The notes below the pieces were generated by a model, which worked only from the letters and a program-made list of their open reading frames with translations, made no database searches and was not told the DNA's origin. Shown in pieces: positions 1,939 through 32,847 of a stretch of 38,620 bases of DNA (the first letter of the stretch is position 1; every line of letters begins with the position of its first letter). Location of the stretch: IMG/VR virus record IMGVR_UViG_3300045988_133151, positions 1-38,620 of that record; one strand, given 5' to 3'. The DNA is from a virus. A program made the translations under genes and the position numbers.

Positions 1939-1958
1939 CTGAAAGGAGAATATTTGCC

Positions 1959-2434: not shown

Positions 2435-2445
2435 GGGGGTTTGTT

Positions 2446-2748: not shown

Positions 2749-2763
2749 GGAGGATATTTTGCA

Positions 2764-3204
2764 ATGGGTACTATTAACTATGGAAGCAACTGCACCAATG
2801 AGGGCCTTCTCAATATTGGCCTTAATTTGAACCGGTTTCGTTCGCCTATAACAATTATGCGTCGCGCAGAGGTGATGCAAGAAATTGTTAATGATTATAA
2901 CGGCACCTGGTTTAAGGTAAACGTTGAACCTGGATACTATGAAGGCGCGTGGGTTTCCATTGAATGGGATGAAGACATACTCTTCTATAACGGGCCTTGG
3001 TCTTTGGAAGAGGTGCGCTCAGAAATAACGTACTTGAATACAATGCTTCAGCTTTTGGTTAATGTTGGGTGCGTGGAATATTGGCCAGGGTGGTGCATGG
3101 GATACAGTACGGCGGCAGAAACAAGAAAGGCCATTATAACCAACGTTGAGCGCCTGTGGGCATATTACAAGAAAACATATCAGGAGGATGAAGGGGATGA
3201 TTAA
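2764..3204 (+). CDS. Hypothetical protein (146 aa)
   Basis: The RBS taaggagg precedes the ATG at 2764. Confidence 0.55.
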   Translation: MGTINYGSNCTNEGLLNIGLNLNRFRSPITIMRRAEVMQEIVNDYNGTWFKVNVEPGYYEGAWVSIEWDEDILFYNGPWSLEEVRSEITYLNTMLQLLVNVGCVEYWPGWCMGYSTAAETRKAIITNVERLWAYYKKTYQEDEGDD

Positions 3205-4468: not shown

Positions 4469-4480
4469 TTAGAAAATGGA

Positions 4481-4545
4481 ATAATCGAAACGGGGAACGT
4501 TCCCCGTCTGCCGTGGGGTAGCTTCCCGGCACTGACGAGATAGGC
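4481..4545 (+). ncRNA. Candidate type II hammerhead ribozyme (GAAA - stem III hairpin - UC cleavage site - stem I hairpin - CUGACGA)
   Basis: The full core is present in the correct order: GAAA at 4487-4490; stem III cggggaacgttccccg at 4491-4506; U16.1 at 4507 able to pair with A15.1 at 4490; C17 at 4508; stem I tgccg...cggca at 4509-4513/4527-4531; CUGACGA at 4532-4538; G10.1 at 4539 facing C11.1 at 4486. Stem II is only 3 bp (gat/atc) plus possible wobbles, which is the weak point. Confidence 0.35.
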
Positions 4546-4792
4546 TAGTGGGGCTTTTTCTTTTGTCTTTATATTTGTTAATAACAACTATATCAATCTG
4601 CATCTGGCACTATATAACACTGTCCAGCATCTTAAAACAAGGCGCTAAAATCGTCTGTACTGCGTTATAATGTATTGAGTAGGGTAGTTATAGCACTGGT
4701 GCAAAGTGGGCCTTGTGGCGCGTTCTGGAGGCCGTCAGGAGGTATTGTACAAATTGCATAAAAAAGCAAAATAATTTTGTGCAATTTGATTA

Positions 4793-4821
4793 TTGCTTTT
4801 TGTCCTGATTTTTGGTAAAAT
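4793..4821 (+). promoter_or_regulatory. Promoter TTGCTT-N17-TGgTAAAAT inside repeat copy 2, overlapped by an inverted repeat caaattgca/tgcaatttg (4750-4788)
   Basis: -35 at 4793-4798 and extended -10 at 4813-4821. No ORF follows for about 1.1 kb. Confidence 0.4.
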
Positions 4822-5176
4822 ACTTATAGAAAATAAGAAAGGGGGTAAAAAGAAAATAAGGGAGACTGCTTCACAGTGCAAGAGGCAGGGGTAGTTCTGA
4901 GAAAGCCTGGAAGTGAGTAGAGGGAAAGCGCGGGGAGGTTGGTATGATTTCCTAGTTGGTTAGTAGGTTTGACGCATTAATCTGTATCAATGCGCCAGCA
5001 AAAACCGATACTGCACCGCTCAGACCTGCGAGAATGGGCCTAGAAAAAATCCTAGCATTAAACAGGTCAAACTATACCGCTTTACAATGTGGGCCTTACA
5101 ACGCATTTTAGATAGGTCACAGAGGGTCTTGTGCAAAATAGTCAAAAAAATAATATAATTTTGTGCAACTTGCTAA

Positions 5177-5205
5177 TGGACAAGCAGGTAGATTTTTGAT
5201 AAAAT
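5177..5205 (+). promoter_or_regulatory. Promoter TGGACA-N17-TGaTAAAAT inside repeat copy 3
   Basis: -35 at 5177-5182 and extended -10 at 5197-5205. Confidence 0.4.
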
Positions 5206-5206
5206 T

Positions 5207-5301
5207 GTGCTAGGGTGGTTGACTTATACCCTTTTTTATGTTATTATAGCCTTGCAAATCAGGGACGGAAAAAACCGGTTTGATTGCAAGGCTTGTTTTT
5301 T
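5207..5301 (+). ncRNA. Candidate small RNA or attenuator: a promoter-proximal ~90-nt transcript ending at a strong terminator
   Basis: A putative transcription start near 5210 is followed by a small hairpin (agggt...accct) and then a 12-bp stem agccttgcaaatc/gattgcaaggct at 5248-5293 plus a T-run at 5296-5301. No ORF lies between the promoter and the terminator. Confidence 0.3.
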
Positions 5302-5319
5302 AAGAAAAATTTGTTATTG

Positions 5320-5650
5320 GTTAGCATAGTAACAAAAATATCTTTTGAGAACAAGTGTGAACCTTGAAAAATAGTGGTGGATTGCTAAACACCCAATAAA
5401 GTATAACTTTTATTGAAAAGTATGCAGTTGAAATGGTTCGATGGCAAATATTTTTTATTGAATGGCATTTTTTAAGTTCGATATTTGGTGATAAAAGATA
5501 TTTTTCGCTGGAGTTATTTGTTTTCGTGATAACAAATATTTGTTGTACAAAATGCACAAATTAGGTATTTGTCATTAACAAATATCTTTCAATGATTGAT
5601 ACTTGTTTTTGAAAAATGTTTGGTTTTGGCTGATATTTGTCATTGTCGAA
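5320..5650. promoter_or_regulatory. AT-rich cluster of palindromic ACAAATAT/ATATTTGT sites, including a perfect 14-bp palindrome aacaaatatttgtt near 5528
   Basis: At least 7 occurrences of the caaatat/atatttg half-site in both orientations (around 5335, 5445, 5480, 5493, 5528, 5565-5580, 5630). This looks like an operator array or origin. Confidence 0.4.
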
Positions 5651-5951
5651 TCGGGTTCGCGTTTGTGCGGATTATGCGTCGCCAATTTTTTCCCCAGGAA
5701 ATTCAAAAATTCCCCCAGATATATGTACGATATACATACATTCATACATCATATAGTGTATGATTAGTTAATGATTAGAATAATAATTATTGTATTTGTA
5801 GTCAGTGAATGTTGGCCTCGCGCACATTACGCGAAACTTAAAAAATCGCCCACAAGTATATAACAAAAACGCTGTAGCTCCCAAAATAACTGGTTAATTC
5901 AGCGCTTCATCGGAAGATGATAATATTACTATAATATAAGGAGACGATGCT

Positions 5952-7825: not shown

Positions 7826-7902
7826 GGTTCCTTAGCTCAATAGGTTAGAGCATCCAGCTCATAACTGGAAGGTTGTGATTTCGAGTATCACAGGAGCCAC
7901 CA
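7826..7902 (+). tRNA. tRNA with anticodon CAT (Met, or Ile if lysidinylated), CCA encoded
   Basis: Folded by hand. The acceptor stem is 7 bp (ggttcct/aggagcc). The D-arm is gctc...gagc, the anticodon arm is tccag-CTCATAA-ctgga, the T-arm is gtgat-TTCGAGT-atcac, and the discriminator A and CCA sit at 7900-7902. A T-run follows. Confidence 0.8.
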
Positions 7903-7974: not shown

Positions 7975-8652
7975 ATGAAAAAAGAAGATGTTAAAAATCA
8001 AGAAAGCGTATTTGAAGTTTTGTATGAGTGTAATTTTAGGTCAAAAGATGGGCATAAAATGTTTCATGTAAAATGCAAAGAGTGTGGCTGGGAAACAAAC
8101 ATGCAAAAACATCAAATAAAATATGTAAAAAAATGCAACCACATGAATGTAGGGAAAAATTTTTATATCGTACCTTATAACTGGAAGAATGAAAGAATTA
8201 GAAGAATTTTTTCTGGAATGAAATCTCGATGTTACAGACCTGGTGAAAAAGATTATAAGTATTATGGAGGAAAGGGAATTAAAATTTATGAAACATGGTT
8301 AAAAAATCCTTCTGCTTTTGAAGAATGGGCGCTTTCTAACGGATATAAAGATAATTTAACGATAGATAGAATTGACGCAACAAAAGATTATTGTCCTGAA
8401 AATTGTAGATGGGTTTCTTTAGAGGATAACGCAAAATATAAATTAACAACAAAAATGTTATTGGTAGATGGAGAAAGTCACACAGGACGAGAATGGGCTG
8501 AAATCTTAAACTTAGGCACTAATACTATAAATGTAATGAGAAGAAACAATTCAATAAACAAAGTAATAGAGTTTATTAGAAGGAGAAAACAAGACATTAC
8601 CAGAAATCGTACTAATAATCAGTCTTGGTTTGAAGTTTATGGATTAGAATAA
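7975..8652 (+). CDS. HNH-family (HNH_3-like) homing-type endonuclease (225 aa)
   Basis: A C-terminal motif LTIDRIDATKDYCPENCRWVSLEDNAKYK resembles the HNH_3 homing-endonuclease signature. The N-terminus has CxxC and C/H residues. The gene is AT-rich and sits next to a tRNA and an IS element. Confidence 0.5.
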   Translation: MKKEDVKNQESVFEVLYECNFRSKDGHKMFHVKCKECGWETNMQKHQIKYVKKCNHMNVGKNFYIVPYNWKNERIRRIFSGMKSRCYRPGEKDYKYYGGKGIKIYETWLKNPSAFEEWALSNGYKDNLTIDRIDATKDYCPENCRWVSLEDNAKYKLTTKMLLVDGESHTGREWAEILNLGTNTINVMRRNNSINKVIEFIRRRKQDITRNRTNNQSWFEVYGLE

Positions 8653-8979: not shown

Positions 8980-10083
8980 ATGTTTAAAGCGTATAAATAT
9001 CGCTTGTATCCTAATAAGGAACAACAAAAATATTTTGCAAAATGTTTTGGATGTGTACGATTCATCTATAATCGTATGCTTTTAGATAAGATTGAGTATT
9101 ACAAAGAAACAAAACAAAAATTGAATAATACACCTGCTCAATATAAAAAAGAATTTCCTTGGTTGAAAGAAGTAGGTTCTCTTGCATTAGCAAATGCTCA
9201 GATGAATTTACAGGCAGCTTACAATAACTTCTTCAAAAGACCAGAAGTAGGATTTCCAAAATTCAAAAGTAAGAAAAATCATAATTGCTCTTATACTACT
9301 AATAATAAAAGTGGAACTATTTATGTAACTGATAAACACATTAGATTGCCTAAGATTGGCTTAATTAAAATAAAGAAACATAGAGACTTTGCAGGGTTGA
9401 TTAAGTCGGCTACTATTTCGCAAAAACCTTCTGGCAAATATTATGTATCTATTTTGGTTGACCAAAAAGATAAAGAAAAATTGCCTATGAATAATAATGA
9501 GATAGGAGTTGACCTTGGGCTTAAAGAATTTTGTATTACTTCTAACGGTGAAATGGTTAAAAATCCTAAATATTTAAAAAAATCTGAAAAACGATTAAGA
9601 AAGTTACAAAAAGATTTGTCTCGCTGTAAAAAAGAAAGTAAGAATAGAGAAAAATGCAGAGTTAAGGTTGCAAAACAACATGAAAAAATTGCGAATCAAA
9701 GAAAAGATTTTTTACATAAACTTTCTAAAAGATTGATTAACGAAAATCAAGTTATTTGTCTTGAGGATTTAAAAGTAAAAAATATGATGAGTAATCATAA
9801 ATTAGCAAAATCAATAGCAGATGTATCTTGGAGTGAATTTGTAAGGCAATTAGAATATAAAGCTGATTGGTATGGACGAGAGATTATTAAGATTGATACT
9901 TGGTATCCTTCTAGTCAGATATGTTCTAATTGCGGTCACAAAGATGGGAAGAAAGCATTATCAATAAGAGAATGGACTTGCTCTGTTTGTGGAACACATC
10001 ACGAAAGAGATATAAATGCAGCAATAAATATTCTCAATGAAGGTTTGAGAATGAAAACCGTAGGAACTACGGTGTTAGCCTAA
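8980..10083 (+). CDS. tnpB: TnpB (IS605 OrfB-family RNA-guided nuclease), 367 aa
   Basis: The N-terminus [15 protein letters not shown]...FGCVRFIYN is characteristic. The RuvC-like region contains [10 protein letters not shown], and the zinc finger is CSNCG...CSVCG. The RBS aaggaag precedes the ATG at 8980. Confidence 0.85.
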
Positions 10084-10390
10084 GTAAACTTGTGCGGTTG
10101 TGCATATTGATTAGGAAGCCCAACAAGCTTTAGCTTGTGGGTGGTTCACCTGCGTTAAAAAATAAAATCACATTATAAAAAGCTTTTCCTTCGGGAGTAG
10201 CCAAAGATATGTTAGGGATAAGTATTTTTGGTAATTAAGCAAAACTGTTTGCGGTAAGCAGGGCACAAGCTAAAAACCGCTTTATGGCAAAGGTGATGTA
10301 ACAGCAAACCATCTTAGTTTTGCGATGACTAAGTTATGCGGGTTGGAGTCCCGCCCTTGCCGCCAATACGCCTTGAAAATTAAATAGCAA
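10084..10390 (+). ncRNA. Probable omega-RNA (reRNA) scaffold region of the TnpB element; 3' boundary not determined
   Basis: In IS200/605 elements the TnpB guide RNA derives from the right-end region downstream of tnpB. This stretch is structured, with hairpins at 10118-10140, 10250-10283 and 10340-10360. Confidence 0.35.
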
Positions 10391-14764: not shown

Positions 14765-14804
14765 TATATAAAAAATAAATTAAGATAGGAGTTAAGTGAT
14801 AGTT

Positions 14805-15854
14805 ATGGCAAAAATTAACTTATTTGACCTTGAACCAGAAAATATTGTAGGGTCAATGGCAGGGCAAAAGTTGTATCTCTACTCTATGAATAATTGCGGC
14901 AAGACGAAGGTTGCTTCAAAGTTACCTAAAGCTCTTCTTATGATGTGTGAACCTGGTGGCAACGGTGTTAAATGCTTAAAGGTTCGTGTTGATAAGTGGA
15001 GTGTATTTAAGGATTTTGTCAATCAGCTTACGAGTGAAAAACTTGTTGTAGACCCCAATGACGAAAATGTTAAATTACCTCAATGGGAACTAATGCAACG
15101 TAAGATTCAGACAGTGGTTATTGATACTGTTGATGAATTGGTTGAATATGCTGAAACTGCAACTTGTCAGGAATATGGAGTAAGTGACCTTTCTGAAATC
15201 ACAGGAAAGGTCAATGGTTATTCTATTTATCGTAAAGATTTTAAAAAGCAAATCAATCGACTTTGTTCTTATGGATATACTTGCGTCTTTATTGGACATG
15301 AGGAGAGAGTAACTATTACTGATGAACTGACTGGTAAAGAATATGAATTTATTCAACCAAAGGGTAGTAGTAATGTGAAAGCATCTACTCGTTTTATTCG
15401 AGATATTTGTGATTTCTGTATTTATCTGAAACCCAATGGTATTGATTCTGCTGGTAACACTATTCTTTCTACTGGTATCAGCAAGCAAACAAAGCAGGTT
15501 TTTGCTCGAAGCCGCTATGACATGCAGACTTTGATTGAGCCGTTTACTGCAAAAAATCTTGAAGATGCAATCCTAAAGGCTATTGAAAAGACAGCGGAAG
15601 AAGAAGGTTCTGAAATCAACGAATGGAAGCGCGACAGTAGTAGCTATGATAAGCATGATTGGCTTGAACTAATTAAGCCTTATTTTGCCGCCATTGGTAA
15701 GCGCTATCCTGAAAAGCTGCAAGAAATTGTGATTACTGAAATTGGTGAAGGGCGCAAGCTGTCCGACATTCCAGAAGAAGACCTTGTTCCTTTGGAAAAT
15801 GTTTTCAATAAGCTAGTTACTTTTGCCTGTGATAGAAATATTATTGTAGACTAA
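14805..15854 (+). CDS. AAA_24 / Sak4-like RecA-fold ATPase (349 aa)
   Basis: Walker A variant YLYSMNNCGKTKVA, Walker B VVIDTVDEL, and the N-terminal MAKINLF...IYGxxGxGKT-like layout typical of the phage Sak4 family. The ATG at 14805 lies 13 nt after taggag. Confidence 0.6.
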   Translation: MAKINLFDLEPENIVGSMAGQKLYLYSMNNCGKTKVASKLPKALLMMCEPGGNGVKCLKVRVDKWSVFKDFVNQLTSEKLVVDPNDENVKLPQWELMQRKIQTVVIDTVDELVEYAETATCQEYGVSDLSEITGKVNGYSIYRKDFKKQINRLCSYGYTCVFIGHEERVTITDELTGKEYEFIQPKGSSNVKASTRFIRDICDFCIYLKPNGIDSAGNTILSTGISKQTKQVFARSRYDMQTLIEPFTAKNLEDAILKAIEKTAEEEGSEINEWKRDSSSYDKHDWLELIKPYFAAIGKRYPEKLQEIVITEIGEGRKLSDIPEEDLVPLENVFNKLVTFACDRNIIVD

Positions 15855-18429: not shown

Positions 18430-18448
18430 GTAAGGAGTGTACGCAATA

Positions 18449-20032
18449 ATGGAAAACACTTTATATGACAGAAATGCCGCGAGTGCGTTGTTGGGCTGTT
18501 TGATGAAAAATCCTGCGCTATTATTGAATCCTTCTTTTCCTTTATATAAAAAGGATTTTGAGTGCGTTGCAATGCACGGGATTCTTTTTATTTGTATCAG
18601 AGAACTTTTGGAAGCAGGAACTAGAGAAATTAGTGCCTTAGAAATTGATACCGTAGCAAAAACCAATTCTCAGTATTACGACATTCTTGTTCAAAATGAT
18701 TATATTGGATATATTGATGCAATCAAAGAATTAGCTAATCATAATAACTTTGAATATTTTTATACAGTTGTTAGGAAGTATTCATTGCTTAGAGAAATGA
18801 AAGAAAATGGCATTTCTATTACTGATTTCTTTGACCCTATTACTGGACAGGCAACGAATTTAGAAAAATTTGAATCTATTACTCTTGAAGAAATGGTCGC
18901 AAGAGTAAACAACATAGTTTCAAATCTGAGAAATAAATACGATGTACGCTTTGTCCGCAATCAAATTTCAGTGGGCGAAGATACGGAAGGGCTACTAGAA
19001 TTTTTTGAAAAAGCTCCTGCTTTTGGTGCTTGCTTACAAAGCGGAGTGTTAAGCACTATTGTTCAAGGATGGAATAGAGGGCACTTATTGTGTCGCTCTG
19101 GTCCTTCAGGAGCGAGTAAAACAAAGCAGGGCGTGGGTGATTTATGTATGGTTTCCGCCCCTGCCTATTACTCAGAAGAAGCAGGAGATTTTGTAGTAAA
19201 TCCAAATTATCAAGGCCCAGGATTCTATATTCACACAGAAATGGATAGTAGAACGGAAGTTGAACCAGCATTTTTAAGTTTTGTTGCTTGCGTAGAATAT
19301 AGAAAAATGAGAAATGGTTTGCTTACAAAAGAAGAAAGACTTCGTGTTCTTAAAGCAGGTGAAATTTTAAAAAAGTCAAATTTACAAATTATTGATATGC
19401 CTGAATACACTTCTGCTTCGCTAGAACAAAAAATTCGTGATATGGCTGAATTTGGTTGTCCTTTTGGCGTGTTTGACTATGTGGAATTAAACAGTTCTCT
19501 TGGTGCGGAGTTTAAAAGTATATCCAATATGCCAGTAAGAGAAGATTTGGTGTTAAAATCTTTAGTGACAGACCTTAAAGGTTACGCAGAAAAATATAAT
19601 GTTGGTATACTTACTGGAACTCAGCTTAATGACACTTGGAAAGAAAAGGCTTTCCCTGATGAATCTTGTCTTTCTGGCGCGAAGTCTATTAAAAACAAGC
19701 TGGATGCGGGAACTATTATTATTCCTTTTAATCAAAGAAGAAAAGAAATGGAGTGTTTAAAAGCTTTTCTACCTAAACCTCGCTTTGGTGAACCTGCACC
19801 GATGATGCCTAATATGATAGAATATGTATATAAATCCCGTTTCGGCGTATACGGCGACGAAAAAGTTAAAATTATATATTATTTTGACAAGGGTACTTCA
19901 AGAAGATACGATTTCTTTTGTGCCGATGATAAGGATAAAATAGTAAATGTTCCTAAAACGGAATTAGAACCTGGAGGTATTTATAATGCGAATGACGCAG
20001 AATGTGAAGCAAGTATTAAAGAAACTGTATGA
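18449..20032 (+). CDS. DnaB-like replicative helicase (527 aa) with a non-canonical P-loop
   Basis: The N-terminal domain (NAASALLGCLMKNPALL...FECVAMHGILFICIRELLEAGTREISALEI) resembles the DnaB N-domain. The Walker-A-like segment is RSGPSGASKTKQG (GxxxxSKT rather than GxxxxGKT). The Walker B/DnaB-like segment is GVFDYVELNS. The ATG at 18449 lies 12 nt after taaggag; the track GTG at 18437 sits inside the RBS. Confidence 0.65.
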   Translation: MENTLYDRNAASALLGCLMKNPALLLNPSFPLYKKDFECVAMHGILFICIRELLEAGTREISALEIDTVAKTNSQYYDILVQNDYIGYIDAIKELANHNNFEYFYTVVRKYSLLREMKENGISITDFFDPITGQATNLEKFESITLEEMVARVNNIVSNLRNKYDVRFVRNQISVGEDTEGLLEFFEKAPAFGACLQSGVLSTIVQGWNRGHLLCRSGPSGASKTKQGVGDLCMVSAPAYYSEEAGDFVVNPNYQGPGFYIHTEMDSRTEVEPAFLSFVACVEYRKMRNGLLTKEERLRVLKAGEILKKSNLQIIDMPEYTSASLEQKIRDMAEFGCPFGVFDYVELNSSLGAEFKSISNMPVREDLVLKSLVTDLKGYAEKYNVGILTGTQLNDTWKEKAFPDESCLSGAKSIKNKLDAGTIIIPFNQRRKEMECLKAFLPKPRFGEPAPMMPNMIEYVYKSRFGVYGDEKVKIIYYFDKGTSRRYDFFCADDKDKIVNVPKTELEPGGIYNANDAECEASIKETV

Positions 20033-20198
20033 ATCAGAAATTCCGATTCCAAAACTTGATGGTCTTGATGAGACAAGTTTTTTGGCAGGTGTTCAGTGGC
20101 TAGGTATTTATATTAAGGCTGTAGTTGAGACAGGAAGATTTGATTTTACAGTAGAACAATTAGCTGAAATTGGAGGTTTGAGCAATGAAGAAGTTTAA
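19986..20198 (+). CDS. Small hypothetical protein (70 aa)
   Basis: The RBS ggagg lies 9 nt before the ATG. The gene overlaps the 3' end of the helicase gene in another frame. Confidence 0.35.
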   Translation: MRMTQNVKQVLKKLYESEIPIPKLDGLDETSFLAGVQWLGIYIKAVVETGRFDFTVEQLAEIGGLSNEEV

Positions 20199-20382
20199 GG
20201 TAGCTAATACGATTGCGTGTATTTTAAATGGCATGTGTCTTTCTTATGCAGGAGGTCAGGCGGCATACTATGCCCAGCAAAATGAGCTTCCTTGGTTTCT
20301 TGTGAGTATTGGTCTAGCTGGATTGTTTACTTTCCTTCTTGTTGACCTTATTCACATGAGGATTAAAAACTGGGAGGACTAA
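20185..20382 (+). CDS. Small membrane protein (65 aa)
   Basis: The RBS ggagg precedes the ATG. There is one clear TM helix (WFLVSIGLAGLFTFLLVDLI). Confidence 0.4.
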   Translation: MKKFKVANTIACILNGMCLSYAGGQAAYYAQQNELPWFLVSIGLAGLFTFLLVDLIHMRIKNWED

Positions 20383-20385
20383 TAG

Positions 20386-21432
20386 ATGGAAAGACGGATA
20401 GTCTATTTGGACAGTGCAGCCACTATGCTTCCCACTTTTTGGTCAAAAGATTTTATGGGATACTCTGGAAATCCCAATGCAAAGCACAAAATGGGACAAA
20501 TGGTGCGATATAAATACGAAGAGTGTAAACAGAGACTAAAAGATATTCTTGGAGTGTCTAGTGGAGAAATTTTCTTTGCTAGATGCGCCACAGAAATTGC
20601 CAATGGACTGTGGCTAGAATCTTTTTTTGGTAATAGAGGTCGTAATTTTGATGTTTGGTGTAGCCCTTGGGAGCATGATTCATGTTATGTTGATTCTTCT
20701 GAATTTAGCAAGGATAGAAATGTGTTTGCTACAGATTGTTATCAAATTGTATTTTGGCAATATGTAAATCACATGACAGGAAACCAATTTTTTATGGAGT
20801 TACCTGAAAAGCATGACAACACTTTGCTATTCAGCGACTTCACTGCGGCAATCGGCAAGGCTGAAATTCCAAAGATTGAAGGAAACTTTGACGCAATCTG
20901 GTGTTCTGGACATAAGTTTGGAGCAGAAGGTGGCGGTTGGCTTTGGGTATCTGATAAAGCTTTAGATTGGTTGCCTGGAATCAAATATTCTTTTGGCGGC
21001 ACTCCTAATGTTCCACAGATTGTGGCCTTGACAACTGCGACAGAATATGCTATAATGGGGACAAAGGAAAACTTTAAGCATTATGTTTTTCTTTGGACTG
21101 CGGTTCAAAATCAACTATTTGACGAAGGCATTGAGCATGAAATTATTGGAGACAACAACCTGCCTATTACTTGTGCTGTAATGACTCTACGTTTTCCTGG
21201 AATGAACGCAGATGCTCTTGCTACATATCTCAGCTACAGGAAAATTTATGTCTCTATGGGAAAATCTGCTTGTTCAGAAGATGATGATTTTAGAGCCTTG
21301 GAATCTTGGGGTTTGACCAAAGAGCAAGCAGAAGAGTGCATCCGAATTTCTTTTGACCCTGACAGCACAACGGCAGATACAGATGATTTTGTTAAAGCAG
21401 TGGCGGCGTTTAAAGAAGAATATTTAAATTAA
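20386..21432 (+). CDS. Class-V aminotransferase fold, NifS/IscS-family cysteine desulfurase homologue (348 aa)
   Basis: IVYLDSAATMLPT corresponds to IYLDYSATTPV. SGHKFGAEGGGWLWV corresponds to SGHKIYGPKGIGALYV, preserving the PLP-Lys. SMGKSACSE corresponds to SSGSACTS, preserving the catalytic Cys. A C-terminal IRISF corresponds to IRFSL. The protein is shorter than bacterial IscS (about 404 aa). The RBS gggagg precedes the ATG. Confidence 0.7.
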   Translation: MERRIVYLDSAATMLPTFWSKDFMGYSGNPNAKHKMGQMVRYKYEECKQRLKDILGVSSGEIFFARCATEIANGLWLESFFGNRGRNFDVWCSPWEHDSCYVDSSEFSKDRNVFATDCYQIVFWQYVNHMTGNQFFMELPEKHDNTLLFSDFTAAIGKAEIPKIEGNFDAIWCSGHKFGAEGGGWLWVSDKALDWLPGIKYSFGGTPNVPQIVALTTATEYAIMGTKENFKHYVFLWTAVQNQLFDEGIEHEIIGDNNLPITCAVMTLRFPGMNADALATYLSYRKIYVSMGKSACSEDDDFRALESWGLTKEQAEECIRISFDPDSTTADTDDFVKAVAAFKEEYLN

Positions 21433-21444: not shown

Positions 21445-22530
21445 ATGGGGCAGATTGATGTAAAAAAATTAAAAGCAAGTCTGTCCCTTTTAGATATTGA
21501 GTATGTAATGAATCAGCTTGGGATTCCTATGTATAGTAAGGGCAACAGAGAATGGATTTTCTATCCAGGAACTAAATACAAAGACCCTTATGCAGGGAAA
21601 CCCAAGCTGTATTTTTATACTGATTCCAAAATATTCATAAGTTACACTGAGTCATGCTCTATGGACATTATAGGTGTAGTACAAAAAAGACTGGCGTTAC
21701 TGAATGAATCTTGCAGTTTCTTGGATGCAGTTAATTATATTCTTGAGACAACAGGAAAAGAGCCTACTGGTTTACATGAATTAACTAAATCTCCGTTTTA
21801 TGATTGGGAAAGTGATTTAGGCAAATTTTCTAAGTTTGGCGGCAGAGGCAGTGGCTTAAAATGTTATGATGCTAGTGTATTGAATCATTTATCCCAATTA
21901 TACCCTTTAAGATGGATTGATGAGGGTATAAGCTGGGACTCTATGAAAAAATATCGCATAGGCTTTTACGACAGAATGAATCAGACCACCATTCCGGTTT
22001 TTGGAAATGACGGAGGGCTGTTGGGGATTCGGTGTAGGAATTGGACAGAAGATATGCTTGCACAAGCCAAATACATTCCATTAACATTACTTGATGGAAC
22101 AACTTATAAATTTCCTACACACAGTGTTTTATATGGATTAAATTATAATTGGCCCACCATTGAAAGAAAGAAAGAGGTGTGGATTGCTGAAGGTGAAAAA
22201 TCAGTCCTGAAATTAGATACTTGGTATGGAACAGAATCTTGTGCTGTGGCGATGTTTGGAAATAATTTGGGACTTCAAAGAAGACAACAGTTGTTGAGTC
22301 TTGGTGTGAACAAGGTTTTTTATATCCCTGACCATGATTTTGTGGGACTTGGAGACAAAGAATTTGACTTATGGACAACTAAACTAAATAAATTTTGCGA
22401 GTTGTGGCATGGATTTGCTACTGTCAACGTTTTGCTTGATACTAAAGGTTATTTTGGCGCAAAAGACAATGCAACTGATTATAATAAAGAAATTTTTACA
22501 GAGTTGTTGGAAAATTCAGTTCAAATGTGA
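21445..22530 (+). CDS. DnaG-like primase (361 aa) with a TOPRIM domain
   Basis: The TOPRIM motif is VWIAEGEKSVLKLD...FYIPDHD. The N-terminus is only zinc-ribbon-like (single Cys, degenerate). The RBS aaggagag precedes the ATG. Confidence 0.65.
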   Translation: MGQIDVKKLKASLSLLDIEYVMNQLGIPMYSKGNREWIFYPGTKYKDPYAGKPKLYFYTDSKIFISYTESCSMDIIGVVQKRLALLNESCSFLDAVNYILETTGKEPTGLHELTKSPFYDWESDLGKFSKFGGRGSGLKCYDASVLNHLSQLYPLRWIDEGISWDSMKKYRIGFYDRMNQTTIPVFGNDGGLLGIRCRNWTEDMLAQAKYIPLTLLDGTTYKFPTHSVLYGLNYNWPTIERKKEVWIAEGEKSVLKLDTWYGTESCAVAMFGNNLGLQRRQQLLSLGVNKVFYIPDHDFVGLGDKEFDLWTTKLNKFCELWHGFATVNVLLDTKGYFGAKDNATDYNKEIFTELLENSVQM

Positions 22531-23818: not shown

Positions 23819-24242
23819 AATCATCAAAAAGCCTGAAGAAGTAAAGGAAGTTAAGTGTCAATTTTGCGGTTGTGTGTTAGAATACAGCAATGCAGATATT
23901 ATTCAAACGACAAACGCCGCGTCTAGTATTATTTGTCCGAACTGTGAAAACATCATTACACTGTCCAAAGAAGAGCATTTCAAACCTGATGTTTGGCCTG
24001 ATTTTTACAGTTATGATGGGCCTAACGTAAAGCGTTTAACTGACGAAAAGATTAGTCAATATATTGACAAATGTGTTAAAAACACAATGCAAAACAAAGA
24101 TATGGCGTGTATGGCAAGTGGAGATACTTTTGTTTTAAGTCTTCCTGATTGCGATAATTCGGGAGAAATTGAAACTATTTCTGTTATTGTTGCACAAGGG
24201 TACAAAGAAGGCTTGGTCTATGAAAGAGAGGGACTTTGTTGA
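23811..24242 (+). CDS. Zinc-ribbon protein (143 aa; CQFCGC...CPNCEN)
   Basis: The ATG at 23811 lies 10 nt after gagagagg. Confidence 0.5.
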   Translation: MIKIIKKPEEVKEVKCQFCGCVLEYSNADIIQTTNAASSIICPNCENIITLSKEEHFKPDVWPDFYSYDGPNVKRLTDEKISQYIDKCVKNTMQNKDMACMASGDTFVLSLPDCDNSGEIETISVIVAQGYKEGLVYEREGLC

Positions 24243-25891
24243 GATATAATTCCATATTAAAGGAATTTAATCCCAACACTTTTTTGACCGATTATCTGCA
24301 AGCAAAAGGCATCCAGGGTGGAGAGATTGAAGAATTTCTCCACCCTGACGAAAAAGTGTTGGATAATCCTTTTGATTATAAGAATATGAGTAAAGCTGTT
24401 GAAGAGTTATCTATTCTAAAACAAAAAAATGATATGTGGGGAACGAAGAAAGTTGGCGTCTTAATTGACTGTGATGTTGACGGCATTATGTCGGCGTCAA
24501 TCATTTCTGATTTTGTTCTAAAGTTAGGAATTAAACCAGAAAATCTTTATCTTTATGCTCATAACAAAAAAGCGCATGGTCTTGGCGCAGAGGGAGACAA
24601 TCTTTGTGAAAAGATGACTCAAGATGAACTTGACCTTGTTTTCACTCCTGATAGCAGTAGTAATGACATTGGTGAACTTAAATTTTTAACAGAGCAGTCT
24701 ATTTCTGTTATTGTACTTGACCACCATGAAGTTGAAACAGAGAGTAGCTGGGGAATTACAGTTAATCATCATCTGTCAGAAGGATTGAATAAATCTCTTT
24801 CTGGCGCAGGTGTGACAGATAAATTTGTTCGAGCTTTTTGCGAAAAAGAACAGCTTGAATATCCTGGTTATGAAGATTTTGTAGCAATTAGTCTAGTAAG
24901 TGATGTTTGTAACCTTCGGGTATTAGAAAATAGATGGTATATTGAAAAGGGACTAAAAAATATCAAACATCCTGCACTTAAAATGATAGTAGATAAATTC
25001 TGTCGCTATGGTGTCAGCCCAAAAGGACTGAGCTTTGGCTGCATTCCCCCTATGAACGCTCTTACACGGCTTTCAGGCACTCTGGAAACGATTGAACTTG
25101 TTAAAGCTATCATCGGTATTGGGAATATGGAACAAGCCCTTAAAATGCTTTCTAAGGCGCACAGAACGCAAAAGAAGACAGTTAAAGATATGACTGACGA
25201 ATTGCAACCTAATATGGATAATACACACAAGGTTGCTGTAGGTTTTGCGGATGATGAAAACAGAAATTATATTGGGCTTGTTGCTAATAAAATTCGCTAC
25301 CATTTAAACAAGCCTACATTCGTTCTGAGAGACGCAGGAGTGTCTTATACAGGGTCTTTGAGAAGTCCGATAGATTTGTTGGATATACTCAATGAAAGTG
25401 GTCTAGCGGTTTGTCAAGGGCATCAGAGGGCATGTGGAATTACCTTTAAGAAGGAAAACTATGACCAAGTTATTGACTTGATGGATAGTATGGATTTAGA
25501 TGTAGACCCACCTATTGACGTTGCCACAAAAGCAAAGTTAAGCGACCTAGATATTGATGTAGCACAGTTAATTGAAGATAATGCTTTACTTTGGGGCGAA
25601 GGTGTAGAGTTGCCTACATTTTACACTGAAGTAAAGCTAAATAAAGATGATGTTCATGTCTATAAGAAAAGAGCAACATTTATTAGAATAACCAGTGGAG
25701 ACGCTGTAATGATACTGCCTTTCGCTTCTACTCTGGATGAAACAAAACTAACTGAATATAGTGAATTTACTTTACAAGCTGTTGTAGAACTTGAAGTAAA
25801 TGAATATAATGGTTATGTAAATCCTCAATGTAAGATTATTCAATATGAGGTTGTTCCTGTAGAAACAAAAGAATTTAAGCATTTATGGTAA
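24236..25891 (+). CDS. RecJ-like DHH-family ssDNA exonuclease (551 aa), apparent TTG start
   Basis: DHH motif I is VLIDCDVDG, motif III is VIVLDHHEVE, and a DHHA1-like C-terminal region is present. The first in-frame ATG is far downstream, and the TTG at 24236 follows a purine-rich gagaggga. Confidence 0.7.
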   Translation: MLRYNSILKEFNPNTFLTDYLQAKGIQGGEIEEFLHPDEKVLDNPFDYKNMSKAVEELSILKQKNDMWGTKKVGVLIDCDVDGIMSASIISDFVLKLGIKPENLYLYAHNKKAHGLGAEGDNLCEKMTQDELDLVFTPDSSSNDIGELKFLTEQSISVIVLDHHEVETESSWGITVNHHLSEGLNKSLSGAGVTDKFVRAFCEKEQLEYPGYEDFVAISLVSDVCNLRVLENRWYIEKGLKNIKHPALKMIVDKFCRYGVSPKGLSFGCIPPMNALTRLSGTLETIELVKAIIGIGNMEQALKMLSKAHRTQKKTVKDMTDELQPNMDNTHKVAVGFADDENRNYIGLVANKIRYHLNKPTFVLRDAGVSYTGSLRSPIDLLDILNESGLAVCQGHQRACGITFKKENYDQVIDLMDSMDLDVDPPIDVATKAKLSDLDIDVAQLIEDNALLWGEGVELPTFYTEVKLNKDDVHVYKKRATFIRITSGDAVMILPFASTLDETKLTEYSEFTLQAVVELEVNEYNGYVNPQCKIIQYEVVPVETKEFKHLW

Positions 25892-27982: not shown

Positions 27983-28130
27983 TCGTGGAGTATTAAAGCC
28001 TATTGAATATAAAACACTAGAAATTTGTTGTGGGATTTTGAACGGTTATGCTATTGTAGAAAAGTGTGATGAGTTAGTTAGACAAGGAGAAAATGATGAT
28101 TGGTGGGGTGAGGAGGATGAAGAATGGTAG
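27927..28130 (+). CDS. Small hypothetical acidic protein (67 aa)
   Basis: The ATG at 27927 lies 6 nt after ggagg. The gene overlaps the previous gene's 3' end out of frame. Confidence 0.35.
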   Translation: MKTEIAKEMLRIVQTRLNNRGVLKPIEYKTLEICCGILNGYAIVEKCDELVRQGENDDWWGEEDEEW

Positions 28131-31100
28131 ATACTTATTTTTCACCACACAACCATAGTGATTATAGTAATCCAAGTTTAGGTTTTAGTGATTCTATTTG
28201 TAAAGTGAGTGGCTTGATTCAAAGAGCTTATGATATTGGTTTACAAGGTGTTACTATCACTGACCATGAATCACTTTCTTCTTTTATTGAAGCATTAAAT
28301 TATTATGAGTCAATGGAGCAAACTAGACCTTTTACTTTAGCTCTGGGCAATGAAATTTATCTTTTAACTGAAGAAGAGTATAAAGAAAATCGTTATAATA
28401 ATGGTACGATTCCTTATTTTCATTTCATTCTTATAGCAAAAGATGATGAAGGTTATCGACAACTTTGTAAATTATCCACAAGAGCTTGGGAACGAGCTTA
28501 TATGAAAGGTTGTTGGCGTAGACCAACTTTAATGGAAGACTTGGTTGAAATAATCCAACCAAACCAAGGTCATGTGTTTGGACTGAGCGCCTGTTTAGGC
28601 TCTCGTATTGACAAAATGCTTCTCGATAAAAACAAAGCATTATTTGAAAAAACTGGGCACTTGGCACAGATTCAACAGATTTTTGGTAAGGGTAATTTCT
28701 ATTTAGAAGTACAACCTTCAGAAATAAAAGGAAATGAACAAAGTATTGTCAATACAATGCTTATGAAAATAGCTAAACAACTGGAATTGCCTATTGTTGT
28801 CAGTACAGACAGTCATTATTTAAAAAAAGATGATGCTATTATCCACGAAGTTTTTTTAAAAAGTCAAGACGGTGAAAGAGAAGTAAGTGATTTTTACGCC
28901 ACTGCCTACATGATGGAACCATCTGATTTGCGAGAACATCTACAACACGAATTTAATGATGAAGAAATTGACTTTTTAATGTCAAATACAATAGAGTTAG
29001 GTCAACGCATAGGTAAATATAGTTTTAAACATAAACCAATTATTCCTGAAATTCCTGAAGAAAAAATTCCTGATTTTAAAACCCAACATACTTTTAAACA
29101 ATATTATTCTGAGTATGAATATTTTGGTTATTATGCTAAAGAAAATTTAGATATACATGAGCGTTATTTCTTTTACCAAATTGAGCAGGGGCTAAAGCAA
29201 AAAGTTGTATTGAAACACAAGGACGTAAAGACCTATGTTGACCGGCTTAATACTGAATGGAGAGAACTAAAGTTAATTAGTGATGAATTAAATGGTTTCA
29301 TGGTAGCATATTACTCAACTATGAGTAAAATAGTAGACCTTATGTGGGAAGCTAACAGTATAGTAGGCCCAGGAAGAGGTTCTTCTTCTGCTTTTTTAAC
29401 TTGCTATTTATTAGACATTACAGCTATAGACCCCGTTCCATTAGGCGATTATATGCCTTATTGGAGACATCTTAGTGCAGAAAGAAAAGCGGAACTTCCT
29501 GATATTGACACTGATTCAGAACCCAGTAAAAAATACGCTATTATAGAAGAAGTCAAAAAGTTTTTTGGAGAAGATAAAGTATTAAATGTTGCTACTTTTT
29601 CTTCAATTTCATCAAAAATAGCTATTGAAAAGGCTTGTCGTGGTTTAGGGATTGATGATACGACTGCGGCATATTTAAAATCTTTGATTCCTGTTAATAG
29701 AGGCAAAATTGCTAAACTTAAAGATTGTTTATACGGTAGTGATAAAACACCTGTAGTTCACGCTCTCGTCGAAGAAATAAAAAAATATCCTAATCTTGAA
29801 AAATGTGCTTTGGGATTGTGCGACATTATTTCTCAAAAAGGACTACATGCCGCAGGTCTTACGGTCAGCAATAAGCCATATACAGAATATTGTAGCATGA
29901 TGAGAGCGCCCAACGGAACCCCTTGCACTTGCTACAATCTTTGGGACGCAGAGGCAGTAAGTTTAGTTAAATTTGATTTGTTGACGGTTGATGCTCTTCA
30001 AAAAGTTCATGGTGCATTAGACGCTATGGCAAATGATGGAACCATTGAATGGCAGGGCAATCTTCGAGACACATACAACAAATATATTCACCCAGACGTT
30101 ATTGATTATGACACACCTGAGATGTGGGATTGTATCAATAAAATGTATTCTATATTTCAGTGGGCCACACCTTTGTCTGTCGCGGCACTAAAGCAAATTC
30201 AGCCAACAACTTTGTCAGAACTTTCAGCAGGAAATAGCCTAATTAGACTTATGCCAGATGGAGACGGTGAAACACCTCTTGATACCTATGTTCGCTATAA
30301 AAATCATCCTGAACAATGGAGCGTAGAAGCTTCTGCGTATGGGCTTAATGAAGAAGAAAAATCAATCATAGCCAAATATACCAAAGATGCTCATTATCTT
30401 GCAGATTGTCAAGAAAAGCTTATGCGACTTTCTATGGATGAGCATGTTGCTGGTTATACTCTAAAAGAAAGCAATCAACTTCGCAAAAGTGTAGCTAAGA
30501 AAGATGAAGCTTTGCAAGAAAAAGCCAAGCAACAATTTTATGAATACGGAAAAAAGCAAGGCACTAGACAAGTAATGCTTGATTATGTTTGGAATGTACT
30601 GTTTAGTAAATCATTTGGATATTCTTTTTCAAGCATCCACAGTTGGGCTTATTCAATGATTGCTCTTCAGGAACTAAACATTTTTTATCATTACGGTGCT
30701 ATATATTGGAACATTGGTTGTTTGCTTACAGAAACAAGTGACGAAGGGTCTGGTTCTGGTGCAGATTACGGTAAGATAGCAAAAGCAATTTATAAAATGC
30801 TTGCATTTGGTGTAAATATTGTATCTCCTAATGTTAATGAGTCTAAAGATAACTTTACTCCAAACGCAAAGGAGAATACTATTTATTACGGATTAGCTAC
30901 AATTTCTGGAATTAACTCTCAGATAGCAAATCAAATCATTTCTATGCGGCCTTATGATTCATTTTTAGATTTTTATCGCAAAAATACATTTCCTGGTTCT
31001 CTAGTTACAAAGTCTAAAATTATTCAACTAATCAAAGCCGGATGTTTTGATTGTTTTAACACAAATAGAATTAAAGTGATGCAAGAATATTTTTGTTTAT

Positions 31101-32008
31101 CTACGCCACAAAAAACAAAGCTTACAACATCTAATCTGCCTGAGATGATTAAAATTGGTGTTGAAATTCCAGAAGAACTTATCAAACCTTATAATTTTAA
31201 GAAGTATGTTTGTCAAAAGCAATTCTTTTACAGTATACATCCTTTGTCTAAATCTAAAAAATTATATAAAGTAGACACTACTGTAATGTCATATTGTGAG
31301 GAATATTTTATATCCGTAATGAAAGAAGGAGCAGATTATTGGTTTGTTGATAGCGAGGTTGTTATTTGCGACAAATCTATTGACAAATGCTTTAAACTTG
31401 TTTTTAATATGTTAAAATCTTGGCTACAAAGACCTGAAACAATCAAAGAATATAACAAAAAGGCTATCATTGCTGCGTACAACACATTAGATTGCGTAGA
31501 TGTAGATAGATGGGCAATGCAATCTACGAGTTATTATCATAACAACGGACATGAATTAAAGAATTTAGATTTTAAGCGTTATGGTATTAGTAGATTTTCT
31601 GACCTTTCAGAAGAACCAGTATTTGTTGAAAAAAACTTTGGACAGCGTTCTTGGCGGCAATATGAAATCAGCGCCATAGCTGGAACATTGATTGCTAAAG
31701 ACGATACTAAGCATATAATTACTTTGCTAACTACTGATTATGATGTAGTAAACTGTAAACTTACTAGAGAAGCCTATGCTCATTATAAACGAGTGATTAG
31801 TTCTGGTAGTGGAAAAGATAAAGTAGTGTATGATGATGCTTGGATTCAAAGAGGGTCTTTGCTGATTGTTTGTGGCTATCGAAATGGTGATGATTTCAGG
31901 TGCAAGAAATACAAAAACAGTGTATATGACCATCAAATGATATTGATTAAACATGTATATAAAGATGGGAGTGCAGACTTACAGACAGAAAGGGTGTTGA
32001 TGGAATAA
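28124..32008 (+). CDS. dnaE: DNA polymerase III alpha subunit, DnaE-type (1294 aa), with an N-terminal PHP domain
   Basis: The PHP motif YFSPHNHSDYS is present. The palm/fingers region GPGRGSSSAFLTCYLLDITAIDP corresponds to [23 protein letters not shown]. The length and domain order match DnaE. The RBS gaggagg lies 7 nt before the ATG. Confidence 0.9.
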   Translation: MVDTYFSPHNHSDYSNPSLGFSDSICKVSGLIQRAYDIGLQGVTITDHESLSSFIEALNYYESMEQTRPFTLALGNEIYLLTEEEYKENRYNNGTIPYFHFILIAKDDEGYRQLCKLSTRAWERAYMKGCWRRPTLMEDLVEIIQPNQGHVFGLSACLGSRIDKMLLDKNKALFEKTGHLAQIQQIFGKGNFYLEVQPSEIKGNEQSIVNTMLMKIAKQLELPIVVSTDSHYLKKDDAIIHEVFLKSQDGEREVSDFYATAYMMEPSDLREHLQHEFNDEEIDFLMSNTIELGQRIGKYSFKHKPIIPEIPEEKIPDFKTQHTFKQYYSEYEYFGYYAKENLDIHERYFFYQIEQGLKQKVVLKHKDVKTYVDRLNTEWRELKLISDELNGFMVAYYSTMSKIVDLMWEANSIVGPGRGSSSAFLTCYLLDITAIDPVPLGDYMPYWRHLSAERKAELPDIDTDSEPSKKYAIIEEVKKFFGEDKVLNVATFSSISSKIAIEKACRGLGIDDTTAAYLKSLIPVNRGKIAKLKDCLYGSDKTPVVHALVEEIKKYPNLEKCALGLCDIISQKGLHAAGLTVSNKPYTEYCSMMRAPNGTPCTCYNLWDAEAVSLVKFDLLTVDALQKVHGALDAMANDGTIEWQGNLRDTYNKYIHPDVIDYDTPEMWDCINKMYSIFQWATPLSVAALKQIQPTTLSELSAGNSLIRLMPDGDGETPLDTYVRYKNHPEQWSVEASAYGLNEEEKSIIAKYTKDAHYLADCQEKLMRLSMDEHVAGYTLKESNQLRKSVAKKDEALQEKAKQQFYEYGKKQGTRQVMLDYVWNVLFSKSFGYSFSSIHSWAYSMIALQELNIFYHYGAIYWNIGCLLTETSDEGSGSGADYGKIAKAIYKMLAFGVNIVSPNVNESKDNFTPNAKENTIYYGLATISGINSQIANQIISMRPYDSFLDFYRKNTFPGSLVTKSKIIQLIKAGCFDCFNTNRIKVMQEYFCLSTPQKTKLTTSNLPEMIKIGVEIPEELIKPYNFKKYVCQKQFFYSIHPLSKSKKLYKVDTTVMSYCEEYFISVMKEGADYWFVDSEVVICDKSIDKCFKLVFNMLKSWLQRPETIKEYNKKAIIAAYNTLDCVDVDRWAMQSTSYYHNNGHELKNLDFKRYGISRFSDLSEEPVFVEKNFGQRSWRQYEISAIAGTLIAKDDTKHIITLLTTDYDVVNCKLTREAYAHYKRVISSGSGKDKVVYDDAWIQRGSLLIVCGYRNGDDFRCKKYKNSVYDHQMILIKHVYKDGSADLQTERVLME

Positions 32009-32457: not shown

Positions 32458-32847
32458 ATGCTTAATATTTTTATGATTTGCATATTTGTTTGTACACTTG
32501 TTATTATATTGATGATTTTGTTTATGATAGCTTTTCGTACAATTTTTGAAGAAAAAATAAAAAAGCTACGAGTTCCTAAAATCAAATTTAAAGATTTCAA
32601 GGTGTGGTTTTTGCTTTGTCCAGAGGCTTATGTTTTAAAAGACAACACCATACACCGTTTCGGTCTTGAAGATTTTCGTTTCAGTATCATTGATACCATT
32701 CGATACAAGTTTTGGAGAAAAAGAGAAAACTATCGTCATGCTAAAGAAAAAAATACGGAACAGATTCACATGCTCTTGTCATACGTCAAGCATGATATTG
32801 AAGAGTATGAAATTAAGACAAGAAAGGAGATTGAACGACTTGGATGA
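32458..32847 (+). CDS. Hypothetical protein with an N-terminal TM helix (129 aa)
   Basis: The ATG at 32458 lies 7 nt after aaaggggg. The track start at 32431 is an upstream extension. Confidence 0.5.
   Translation: MLNIFMICIFVCTLVIILMILFMIAFRTIFEEKIKKLRVPKIKFKDFKVWFLLCPEAYVLKDNTIHRFGLEDFRFSIIDTIRYKFWRKRENYRHAKEKNTEQIHMLLSYVKHDIEEYEIKTRKEIERLG

Follow-up and report, generated by a model that had tools for sequence, protein, structure and literature searches.

A divergent, short-form NifS/IscS-type cysteine desulfurase in a phage replication module, and its possible sulfur clients

Why a virus should carry a sulfur-mobilising enzyme among its DNA replication genes is the question raised by IMG/VR record IMGVR_UViG_3300045988_133151, of which positions 1 to 38,620 (the window hereafter, 38,620 nucleotides in all) were analysed. 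The window holds an open reading frame (ORF) of 348 amino acids (aa) with an ATG start, at 20386..21432 on the + strand, which a first-pass annotation made from the sequence alone had read as a NifS/IscS-type cysteine desulfurase without an obvious role. Here we report that its product is a divergent group-I (NifS/IscS-type) cysteine desulfurase of a coherent, phage-restricted family. We tentatively propose that it supplies persulfide sulfur to iron-sulfur (Fe-S) or thiolation enzymes of the phage, with the activase NrdG as the probable client in this lineage, a reading that we prefer while rating it short of likely. The gene and its internal features are the following:

20386 to 21432, + strand: desulfurase gene, short-form group-I NifS/IscS-like, 348 aa (Pfam; profile against PDB; AlphaFold2/Foldseek; ratio of nonsynonymous to synonymous substitution rates, dN/dS)
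20372 to 20377, + strand: Shine-Dalgarno sequence GGGAGG, 8 nucleotides (nt) before the desulfurase ATG, read from the sequence
20680 to 20760, + strand: region of the internal deletion, about residues 99-125, with some 24 aa fewer than NifS/IscS
20914 to 20916, + strand: codon of K177, the predicted Schiff-base lysine for pyridoxal 5'-phosphate (PLP) in the SGHK motif, invariant in 96/96 homologues
21271 to 21273, + strand: codon of C296, the predicted persulfide-forming catalytic cysteine in the S-A-C loop, invariant in 96/96 homologues

The membership in the class-V PLP enzymes, which had been left to a profile search, follows from Pfam PF00266 (Aminotran_5), matched at 77.4 bits (cutoff 21.5; E = 1.4e-21, far beyond chance), and the same domain is present in all 96 homologues. 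Cysteine desulfurase models fill the top NCBIfam ranks, NifS first and then PRK02948 (the Firmicute IscS subfamily), nifS_epsilon, DndA, IscS and SufS. None of the whole-protein cutoffs of the NifS, IscS and nifS_epsilon models is reached (TIGR03402, 73.9 vs 530.75 bits; TIGR02006, 38.8 vs 643.2; TIGR03403, 42.8 vs 587.7; PRK02948, 59 vs 304), nor is that of DndA (TIGR03235, 40.8 vs 480) or SufS (TIGR01979, 38.3 vs 475.1), and the group-II signature is absent; the equivalog scores lie 7- to 17-fold under the curated cutoffs. In PADLOC the marginally best defence match is SspA (86.8 bits), followed by DndA (80 bits), and neither is better than NifS. Since every curated cutoff is missed, the protein is assigned to none of NifS, IscS, DndA or SufS, the choice that the first-pass annotation had hoped profile searches would settle; a subfamily label of DndA, SspA, NifS or IscS was considered and dropped, as NCBIfam and PADLOC could not separate them. 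For annotation, the family name "NifS-like cysteine desulfurase, phage short form" is appropriate, and not DndA, IscS or SufS.

A family profile built from 41 of the 96 homologues and compared with the PDB places at the top of the ranking group-I desulfurases exclusively, in full-length alignment: the NifS-like protein of Thermotoga maritima (1ECX) scores 194 bits end-to-end, Escherichia coli IscS 156 and Nfs1 138. Lower in the ranking are DndA (124 bits), SspA (108), selenocysteine lyase (79-85) and the group-II SufS/CsdA/CsdB-type enzymes (about 54-81). The structural comparison agrees. The AlphaFold2 model has a predicted local distance difference test score (pLDDT) of 89.7 and a predicted template modelling score (pTM) of 0.89, and in Foldseek the best 48 PDB matches are all NifS, IscS or Nfs1, with template modelling (TM) scores of 0.76-0.86, while SufS appears from rank 49 on; TM scores of 0.80-0.86 to NifS/IscS/Nfs1 go with an identity of 18-23%. 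Pfam, the profile ranking and Foldseek thus bear out the original reading of the ORF, and the protein groups with desulfurases rather than with other class-V aminotransferases.

The two motifs on which that reading was based are retained. In gapped alignment SGHKFG (K177) corresponds to SAHKF of 1ECX and SGHKIY of E. coli IscS (K206), and SMGKSACSE (C296) corresponds to STSSACTS of 1ECX and to the SSGSACTS loop of IscS (C328), so that neither the PLP lysine nor the catalytic cysteine is lost. The residues H97, D151, K177, S294, A295, C296, R320 and G205 are invariant in all 96 homologues, while N128 (92/96), T206 (94/96) and T69 (90/96) are nearly so. Residues H97, D151, K177, C296 and R320 stand one-to-one with H104, D180, K206, C328 and R354 of IscS, and the roles predicted by alignment are stacking on PLP for H97, contact with the pyridine nitrogen for D151, the Schiff base for K177 and binding of the substrate carboxylate for R320; T69 stands at the Thr of the GATE phosphate loop and G205-T206 at the Gly-Thr of the second one. 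The catalytic loop is of the group-I type (consensus SSGSAC(T/S)S), as distinct from the RxGHHCA of group II, and its low pLDDT (72 for the block 291-300) is as expected of a flexible loop. We conclude that the protein is quite likely an active persulfide-forming cysteine desulfurase, with a fine chemistry that may be altered.

The 348 aa of the protein fall 56 short of E. coli IscS (404 aa), close to the deficit of about 55 aa first noticed, and 36 short of 1ECX (384 aa). One internal deletion, right after the EH motif (residues 99-139 of the query against 101-165 of 1ECX; likewise in the profile alignment), explains about 24 aa of the gap, and the model is least confident there (pLDDT 56-77 over the 81-120 blocks). 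Most of the remainder is the C-terminal tail of IscS, which is absent. Against orthologues of 95-97% identity dN/dS is 0.06-0.10, at a dS of about 0.23-0.28, and the gene is under purifying selection.

The family to which the gene belongs was delimited in several collections. A search of 5.8 billion proteins returned the 96 homologues, most of them 345-368 aa long and 36-40% identical, and scanning 1.84 billion cluster representatives exhaustively with the profile gave about 90 short-form clusters (50% identity, 230-500 bits, about 330-365 aa), with a gradual passage to canonical NifS/IscS near 190-220 bits. Members have in common a length of about 330-368 aa, the deletion after the EH motif, the motifs RCATE and SD(F/I)TA(A/S) and a location in an SPbeta-like replication module, and the window gene has all of these; the SPbeta markers YorF, YorH and YonD are among the neighbours in relatives. 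In IMG/VR at least 22 viral contigs carry the family (21 from the scan, plus L031; L numbers denote retrieved loci), mostly of 66-120 kb, while GTDB gave one match in 185,579 species genomes, on an 81-kb contig in a gut "Tenericutes" metagenome-assembled genome (MAG). Among GenBank phages there are seven weak matches, of at most 30% identity and all unannotated, Staphylococcus and Listeria records included. The protein is also matched by PHROG 12787 (unknown function), and its best viral structural match in BFVD is a 351-aa "NifS-like protein" of a gut Siphoviridae genome (31% identity, TM 0.84), which probably belongs to the same short family. A distant viral desulfurase of canonical length (382 aa) was also seen on a 114-kb contig (L029, 16301-18902), near NadE, NAPRTase and an SPFH/Band 7 protein.

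The short-form family is coherent and phage-restricted, its members lying almost exclusively on SPbeta-like viral contigs of 75-120 kb. Given the viral NifS-like entries already in databases, the gene is a further member of a catalogued kind of protein, and these entries qualify the initial statement that it has no obvious role, some precedent in viruses being on record. Metagenome surveys list phage cysteine desulfurases as auxiliary metabolic genes (AMGs) for cofactor supply (PMC12911398). In our literature searches we found such AMG lists only, no paper characterising a phage cysteine desulfurase, and no published account of the replication-module context or of the pairing with a PP-loop protein described below.

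The position of the gene in the window is defined by these features:

18437 to 20032, + strand: DnaB-like replicative helicase, upstream (Pfam DnaB_C, PHROG 19)
19986 to 20382, + strand: two small ORFs in the gap between helicase and desulfurase, of 70 aa (19986-20198) and 65 aa (20185-20382)
21028 to 21056, + strand: extended -10 sigma-70 promoter within the desulfurase ORF (TTGACA, 17-nt spacer, TG-TATAAT; 12/12 consensus)
21445 to 22530, + strand: primase, YorJ/DUF6371-type (PHROG 47 DNA primase; NCBIfam PRK08624, 195 bits)
14796 to 15854: Sak4-like AAA_24
24236 to 25891: RecJ
28124 to 32008: PolIII-alpha
32666 to 35110: RecD-like helicase
36182 to 38548: 788-aa ORF with a MVP_shoulder (major vault protein) domain match, in place of the nrdD/nrdG of relatives

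With DnaB-like, primase, Sak4-like, RecJ, PolIII-alpha and RecD-like genes around the desulfurase, the wider window is a phage replication module. The placement between the DnaB-like helicase and the primase that was noted at the outset is correct, with the addition that the two small ORFs also intervene on the helicase side. Those ORFs gave no matches in a Pfam scan and are kept in close relatives only (families 35 and 56 of our ORF clustering); the 65-aa one, just upstream of the desulfurase, looks like a small membrane protein. On the other side the primase starts 13 nt past the desulfurase stop, and the internal promoter lies about 390 nt before the primase start. Its hexamers and TG are identical in five orthologues, L004 with saturated dS among them, while the spacer differs at six positions, and the 3'-terminal third of the desulfurase gene probably also serves the primase operon as its promoter region. 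A promoter within the desulfurase gene would hold the gene beside the primase whether or not the two proteins are functionally linked.

For a view of the wider context, the ORFs of 29 fetched loci were clustered and later loci were added. In every locus examined the desulfurase lies within a replication/nucleotide-metabolism module, the commonest order being YorF, Sak4, DnaB, (β-CASP nuclease), desulfurase, (140-aa Zn-ribbon ORF), primase, RecJ and PolIII-alpha. The primase is the commonest downstream neighbour: of the 27 first-set loci with a family-0 ORF, 17 have it immediately after the desulfurase or separated from it by a single Zn-ribbon ORF, and it is likewise downstream in L126, L127 and L129. 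Other arrangements are NrdD with an intein directly upstream of the desulfurase (L013-L015), HU-desulfurase-integrase (L005/L006) and RecJ-desulfurase (L028 and L071). Two diverged desulfurase paralogues are encoded in L028 (2679-3773 and 11345-12382), one paired with a decaying PAPS_reduct gene and the other placed after a class II-type ribonucleotide reductase (RNR). Radical SAM enzymes are found 5 kb from the desulfurase in L020 and possibly near it in L003. As a side observation, the NrdD of L014 (6167-9625) and the class II-type RNR of L025 (6800-9292) contain inteins or homing endonuclease domains. No partner gene is conserved throughout the roughly 30 contexts. Most of them hold at least one phage protein that needs a [4Fe-4S] cluster or a sulfur relay (NrdG, a DndC-like PP-loop protein or a radical SAM enzyme), L022-L027 being an exception.

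Within the window itself a client is not apparent. Pfam scans of the window ORFs gave no PAPS_reduct/DndC, DndD or DndE domain and no ThiI or MnmA, in line with the initial remark that dndBCDE, thiI and mnmA homologues are missing here, and the scan extended to 35 small window ORFs gave only ABC_trans_CmpB, HTH_36 and DUF5795. An Fe-S or Zn primase was considered as client and rejected, the primase family having one semi-conserved Cys and no cluster motif, and RecJ, DnaB, Sak4 and YorF have no conserved 4-Cys cluster either. Because the primase family lacks a conserved Cys cluster, its Fe-S or Zn maturation is unsupported, and the early idea that the enzyme serves the Fe-S maturation of a replication protein gives way to a better candidate, the NrdG of the closest relatives. 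Three IMG/VR contigs with a 95-97% identical desulfurase were followed downstream to the strand switch at which tail-fibre and lysis genes begin; the IMG/VR relatives of this phage are IMGVR_UViG_3300045988_133080, _143934 and 3300039378_000108. Within about 10 kb past the RecD-like helicase they carry a split nrdD and nrdG, then ThyX and dUTPase; an IscB-like ORF and a Dam methylase are further genes of this early module before the strand switch. The relatives' NrdG matches Fer4_12 at 153 bits and has the motif CNRHCKNC.

In L042-L044, the three closest relatives, nrdD (about 13.8-19.3 kb, locus coordinates) is in two to four pieces, split differently per contig by ORFs of LAGLIDADG, HNH and GIY-YIG type; the RNR genes of these phages are heavily invaded by mobile elements. 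The 788-aa ORF in the window had no relative in the IMG/VR scan and no exact record in the contig index, and the leftward ORF at 895-1347, searched in order to extend the genome, gave no match.

In sister lineages a different partner is found. A PAPS-reductase-type PP-loop protein (PAPS_reduct) directly adjoins the desulfurase in L031, L071, L101, L110 and L028 and lies 4 kb off in L012. The orders differ: DnaB-desulfurase-PAPS_reduct-primase in L031, RecJ-desulfurase-PAPS_reduct in L071 and L028, Int...desulfurase-PAPS_reduct in L101 and PAPS_reduct-desulfurase in L110. The desulfurases so paired are 25-46% identical and fall into at least two clades of a neighbour-joining tree, which has no bootstrap support and is indicative only; given the low identity and the at least two clades, the pair either moves as a unit or has been re-formed. 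The PP-loop family has the motif SGGKDS and invariant C171 (the first of a majority CC dyad), C212, C269 and C272, a cysteine pattern that resembles DndC as described in PMC10853773. By NCBIfam the protein is not DndC; its best defence matches in PADLOC are BrxP and SspD, at 32-55 bits and over the PP-loop only. The family is large, with more than 548 IMG/VR loci (the L030-L120 set was sampled), and a desulfurase is nearby in 6 of the 87 sampled neighbourhoods. A PAPS_reduct gene was found neither in the 38.6-kb window nor, as far as the strand switch, in the early module of the relatives whose desulfurase is 95-97% identical, and in L028 that gene is decaying, with an in-frame stop and SGGKDS changed to SRGKDS, while the desulfurase is intact. 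A NTPase of the DndD/SspC/BrxC type was not seen in the loci examined.

On these grounds the enzyme would act as a stand-alone group-I cysteine desulfurase that is catalytically competent. As the conserved residues suggest, PLP on K177 would bind L-cysteine, and C296 on the flexible loop would take over its sulfur as a persulfide with release of alanine. Presumably expressed together with the replication and nucleotide-metabolism genes of what would be an SPbeta-like phage from gut metagenomes, the enzyme could, in the infected cell, give the persulfide sulfur from which Fe-S or thiolation centres of phage enzymes are built. In the lineage of the window phage the likeliest client would be NrdG, the [4Fe-4S] activase of the phage anaerobic RNR, and in the sister lineages it would be the adjoining PAPS-reductase-type PP-loop protein with its DndC-like cysteines. 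A precedent is DndA, which acts as sulfur donor and also builds the Fe-S cluster of DndC (You et al. 2007, cited in PMC12914056; also PMC10853773).

Several observations count against this proposal. Among the other window ORFs of at least 58 aa none has a Pfam sulfur-acceptor domain, and no scaffold gene (IscU, NifU or SufU) lies near the desulfurase. Identity between the window and its IMG/VR relatives is 91-97% as far as about 35,523; beyond that point, just before the relatives' nrdDG, the sequences part, and NrdG is therefore ascribed to the window phage through its relatives. In L022-L027 the gene upstream of the desulfurase encodes a class II-type RNR, an enzyme that is not known to need Fe-S, and most family members have neither a RNR nor a PAPS_reduct gene within 10 kb. 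NrdG is very common in phages without a desulfurase, and so is PAPS_reduct, so neither requires it. In the active site, the Gln that hydrogen-bonds the O3' of PLP (Q183 of IscS) is Ala154 in the query (Ala in 93/96 homologues, Gln in 3/96) and the phosphate-loop GATE is CATE, with Cys67 for Gly, in 90/96, so that the chemistry may be modified.

Among the other explanations, one takes the enzyme as a dedicated donor for the thiolation of phage DNA (as a phosphorothioate or a thio-base) or of tRNA through a DndC/SspD/BrxP-like PP-loop ATPase, for example against restriction, with the partner of the window phage encoded elsewhere in its genome, supplied by the host or lost. We consider this possible, though rather unlikely. 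The adjacency to PAPS_reduct in five diverged phages, persisting through rearrangements and across at least two clades, speaks for it, as do the SGGKDS PP-loop with its DndC-like cysteines and the fact that the best defence matches are the phosphorothioation enzymes BrxP and SspD; desulfurase and PP-loop pairs are, moreover, the standard architecture of thiolation (DndA-DndC, SspA-SspD, IscS-ThiI/MnmA/TtcA; PMC12914056, PMC10853773). Against it stand the missing PAPS_reduct gene in the window and in the early module of its relatives, the failure of the PP-loop protein to be recognised as DndC, with a similarity to BrxP/SspD confined to the PP-loop, the persistence of the desulfurase beside a decaying partner in L028, and the lack of a partner within 10 kb in most family members. 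DNA phosphorothioation also needs a NTPase of the DndD/SspC/BrxC type (PMC12914056), which was not seen. The Dnd-like thio-modification envisaged at first has an unforeseen partial counterpart in the pairing with a DndC-like PP-loop protein in several related phages, a partner that was found neither in the window nor in the early module of its closest relatives; the accompanying suggestion of s2U on the co-encoded tRNA-Met (7826-7902, a confirmed tRNA gene) conflicts with established biology, s2U34 occurring on tRNA-Lys, -Glu and -Gln. The enzyme could instead be a general AMG that feeds IscU/SufU/NifU, ThiI and MnmA of the host, so that Fe-S enzymes and tRNA thiolation keep going after host shut-off, without a dedicated phage client, which appears unlikely to us. 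It would explain why no partner is universally conserved and why the gene persists at varied positions, such as between HU and integrase, it accords with the listing of phage cysteine desulfurases as AMGs (PMC12911398), and the sole genome-bin match is the 'Tenericutes' gut MAG. A general supplier of host scaffolds is harder to reconcile with the loss of the C-terminal tail and of an internal segment of housekeeping IscS, with a location consistently in the replication/nucleotide-metabolism module and not in a moron or AMG island, and with the recurrence of a phage PP-loop gene as close partner, which favours phage-specific clients. As background to this comparison, Tenericutes-type organisms have reduced genomes, and the C-terminal tail of IscS contributes to the binding of IscU.

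The remaining two explanations concern the enzyme itself. An altered PLP chemistry, be it that of a selenocysteine lyase, a cysteine sulfinate desulfinase, a C-S lyase or an amino-group or side-chain tailoring step of DNA hypermodification, is improbable in our view: the Ala that replaces Gln after D151, the Cys67 of CATE, the failure to reach any curated desulfurase cutoff, the selenocysteine lyases among the profile matches and the distance of only 3-7 kb to a DNA-hypermodification cluster in L020 could all be cited for it, whereas the S-A-C loop and the substrate-carboxylate Arg, the signature of persulfide-forming desulfurases, are invariant, the best sequence and structure matches are all bona fide group-I desulfurases, and the hypermodification context occurs at one locus only. 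That cluster, 3-7 kb downstream of the desulfurase of L020 (12988-18394), is DNA-hypermodification-like: besides the radical SAM enzyme it has DUF932, two TET-associated glycosyltransferases (TAGT) and an ORF taken as DNA methyltransferase-like from its SPPY motif only (family 14). The other explanation, that a nifS/iscS gene captured from a host is decaying here and no longer functional, we regard as extremely improbable; the gene is shorter than cellular homologues and under all curated cutoffs, but it has a low dN/dS, its own Shine-Dalgarno sequence and a confident predicted fold, and its active-site residues are invariant across 96 homologues with identities down to 25-40%. Selection and conservation together effectively refute this reading.

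Should the desulfurase be active, these phages would equip the infected cell with a sulfur-mobilising step of their own, beside the genes for replication and dNTP supply; gut phages of anaerobes would then actively secure Fe-S cluster supply, for instance to serve the activase of the anaerobic RNR. Of greater consequence is a lead from beyond the window, the recurrent pairing of desulfurase and PP-loop protein, which offers a testable function for abundant phage "PAPS reductase" genes. One might speculate that the two proteins form a compact two-gene viral thiolation module that puts sulfur into phage DNA or tRNA as a counter-defence, an idea we find doubtful at present. The sulfur would be introduced as a phosphorothioate or a thio-base, and the window phage would keep the donor half, with an unlinked or host acceptor, which is likewise a long way from probable. 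Surveys usually label phage "PAPS reductase" genes as sulfate-assimilation AMGs; were the two-gene module real, the widespread phage 'PAPS reductase / cysH' genes would have to be read as encoding enzymes of nucleic-acid thiolation instead.

A few further features of the window stand apart from the desulfurase. Between tRNA-Met and a 'tRNA-Arg(GCG)' there are an HNH endonuclease (7975-8652) and a TnpB (OrfB_IS605 plus Cas12f-like TNB, 8980-10083). The 80-nt 'tRNA-Arg(GCG)' (10286-10365) was called by ARAGORN only, with no gathering-level confirmation in Rfam, and may be spurious or part of a TnpB-associated RNA region. A type II hammerhead ribozyme match (4483-4549, + strand; Rfam 47.2 bits, gathering cutoff 37, E = 8.8e-7) opens an ORF-poor stretch of about 1.5 kb (4470-5950), and the region 1001-3000 has a GC content of 44-46%, against 32-39% in most of the window, with small ORFs that have no family matches.

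Compared with known systems, the phage enzyme has the same fold as the group-I desulfurases of T. maritima (1ECX/1EG5), E. coli (IscS, 1P3W), human (Nfs1) and Helicobacter pylori (NifS), at TM scores of 0.80-0.86, and shares with them the PLP lysine, the stacking His, the Asp, the substrate Arg and the S-A-C loop. It differs from them in being 36-56 aa shorter, in having Ala for the PLP-O3' Gln and CATE for GATE, in an identity of only 18-23% and in being phage-encoded, with no scaffold or acceptor gene alongside. Its phage relatives are the NifS-like UniProt entries of gut 'Siphoviridae sp.' (e.g., A0A8S5SK43) and PHROG 12787, while the NifS-like proteins of African swine fever virus and giant viruses, which are eukaryotic viruses, reach query-normalised TM scores of 0.65-0.83 at 13-18% identity; all these viral proteins are uncharacterised. 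DndA and SspA have the same group-I fold, and SspA (6M4J) is equally short, with 348 aa; against the family profile, however, both score below NifS and IscS (DndA 124 bits, SspA 108 bits), and SspA below Nfs1 and DndA too. Unlike the Dnd and Ssp systems, the window has no dndBCDE or sspBCD genes, and no DndD/SspC-type ATPase was seen; the adjacency of DndA-DndC and SspA-SspD is nevertheless echoed by those relatives of the query that stand beside a PP-loop protein with a PAPS-reductase domain. Group-I desulfurases of Firmicutes are typically specialised and encoded beside their acceptor, and Bacillus subtilis has the dedicated desulfurase-acceptor pairs NifZ-ThiI, YrvO-MnmA and NifS-NadA. While the window gene is without an adjacent acceptor, ThiI or MnmA, the desulfurase-PAPS_reduct pairs of related phages follow the same logic as those of B. 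subtilis.

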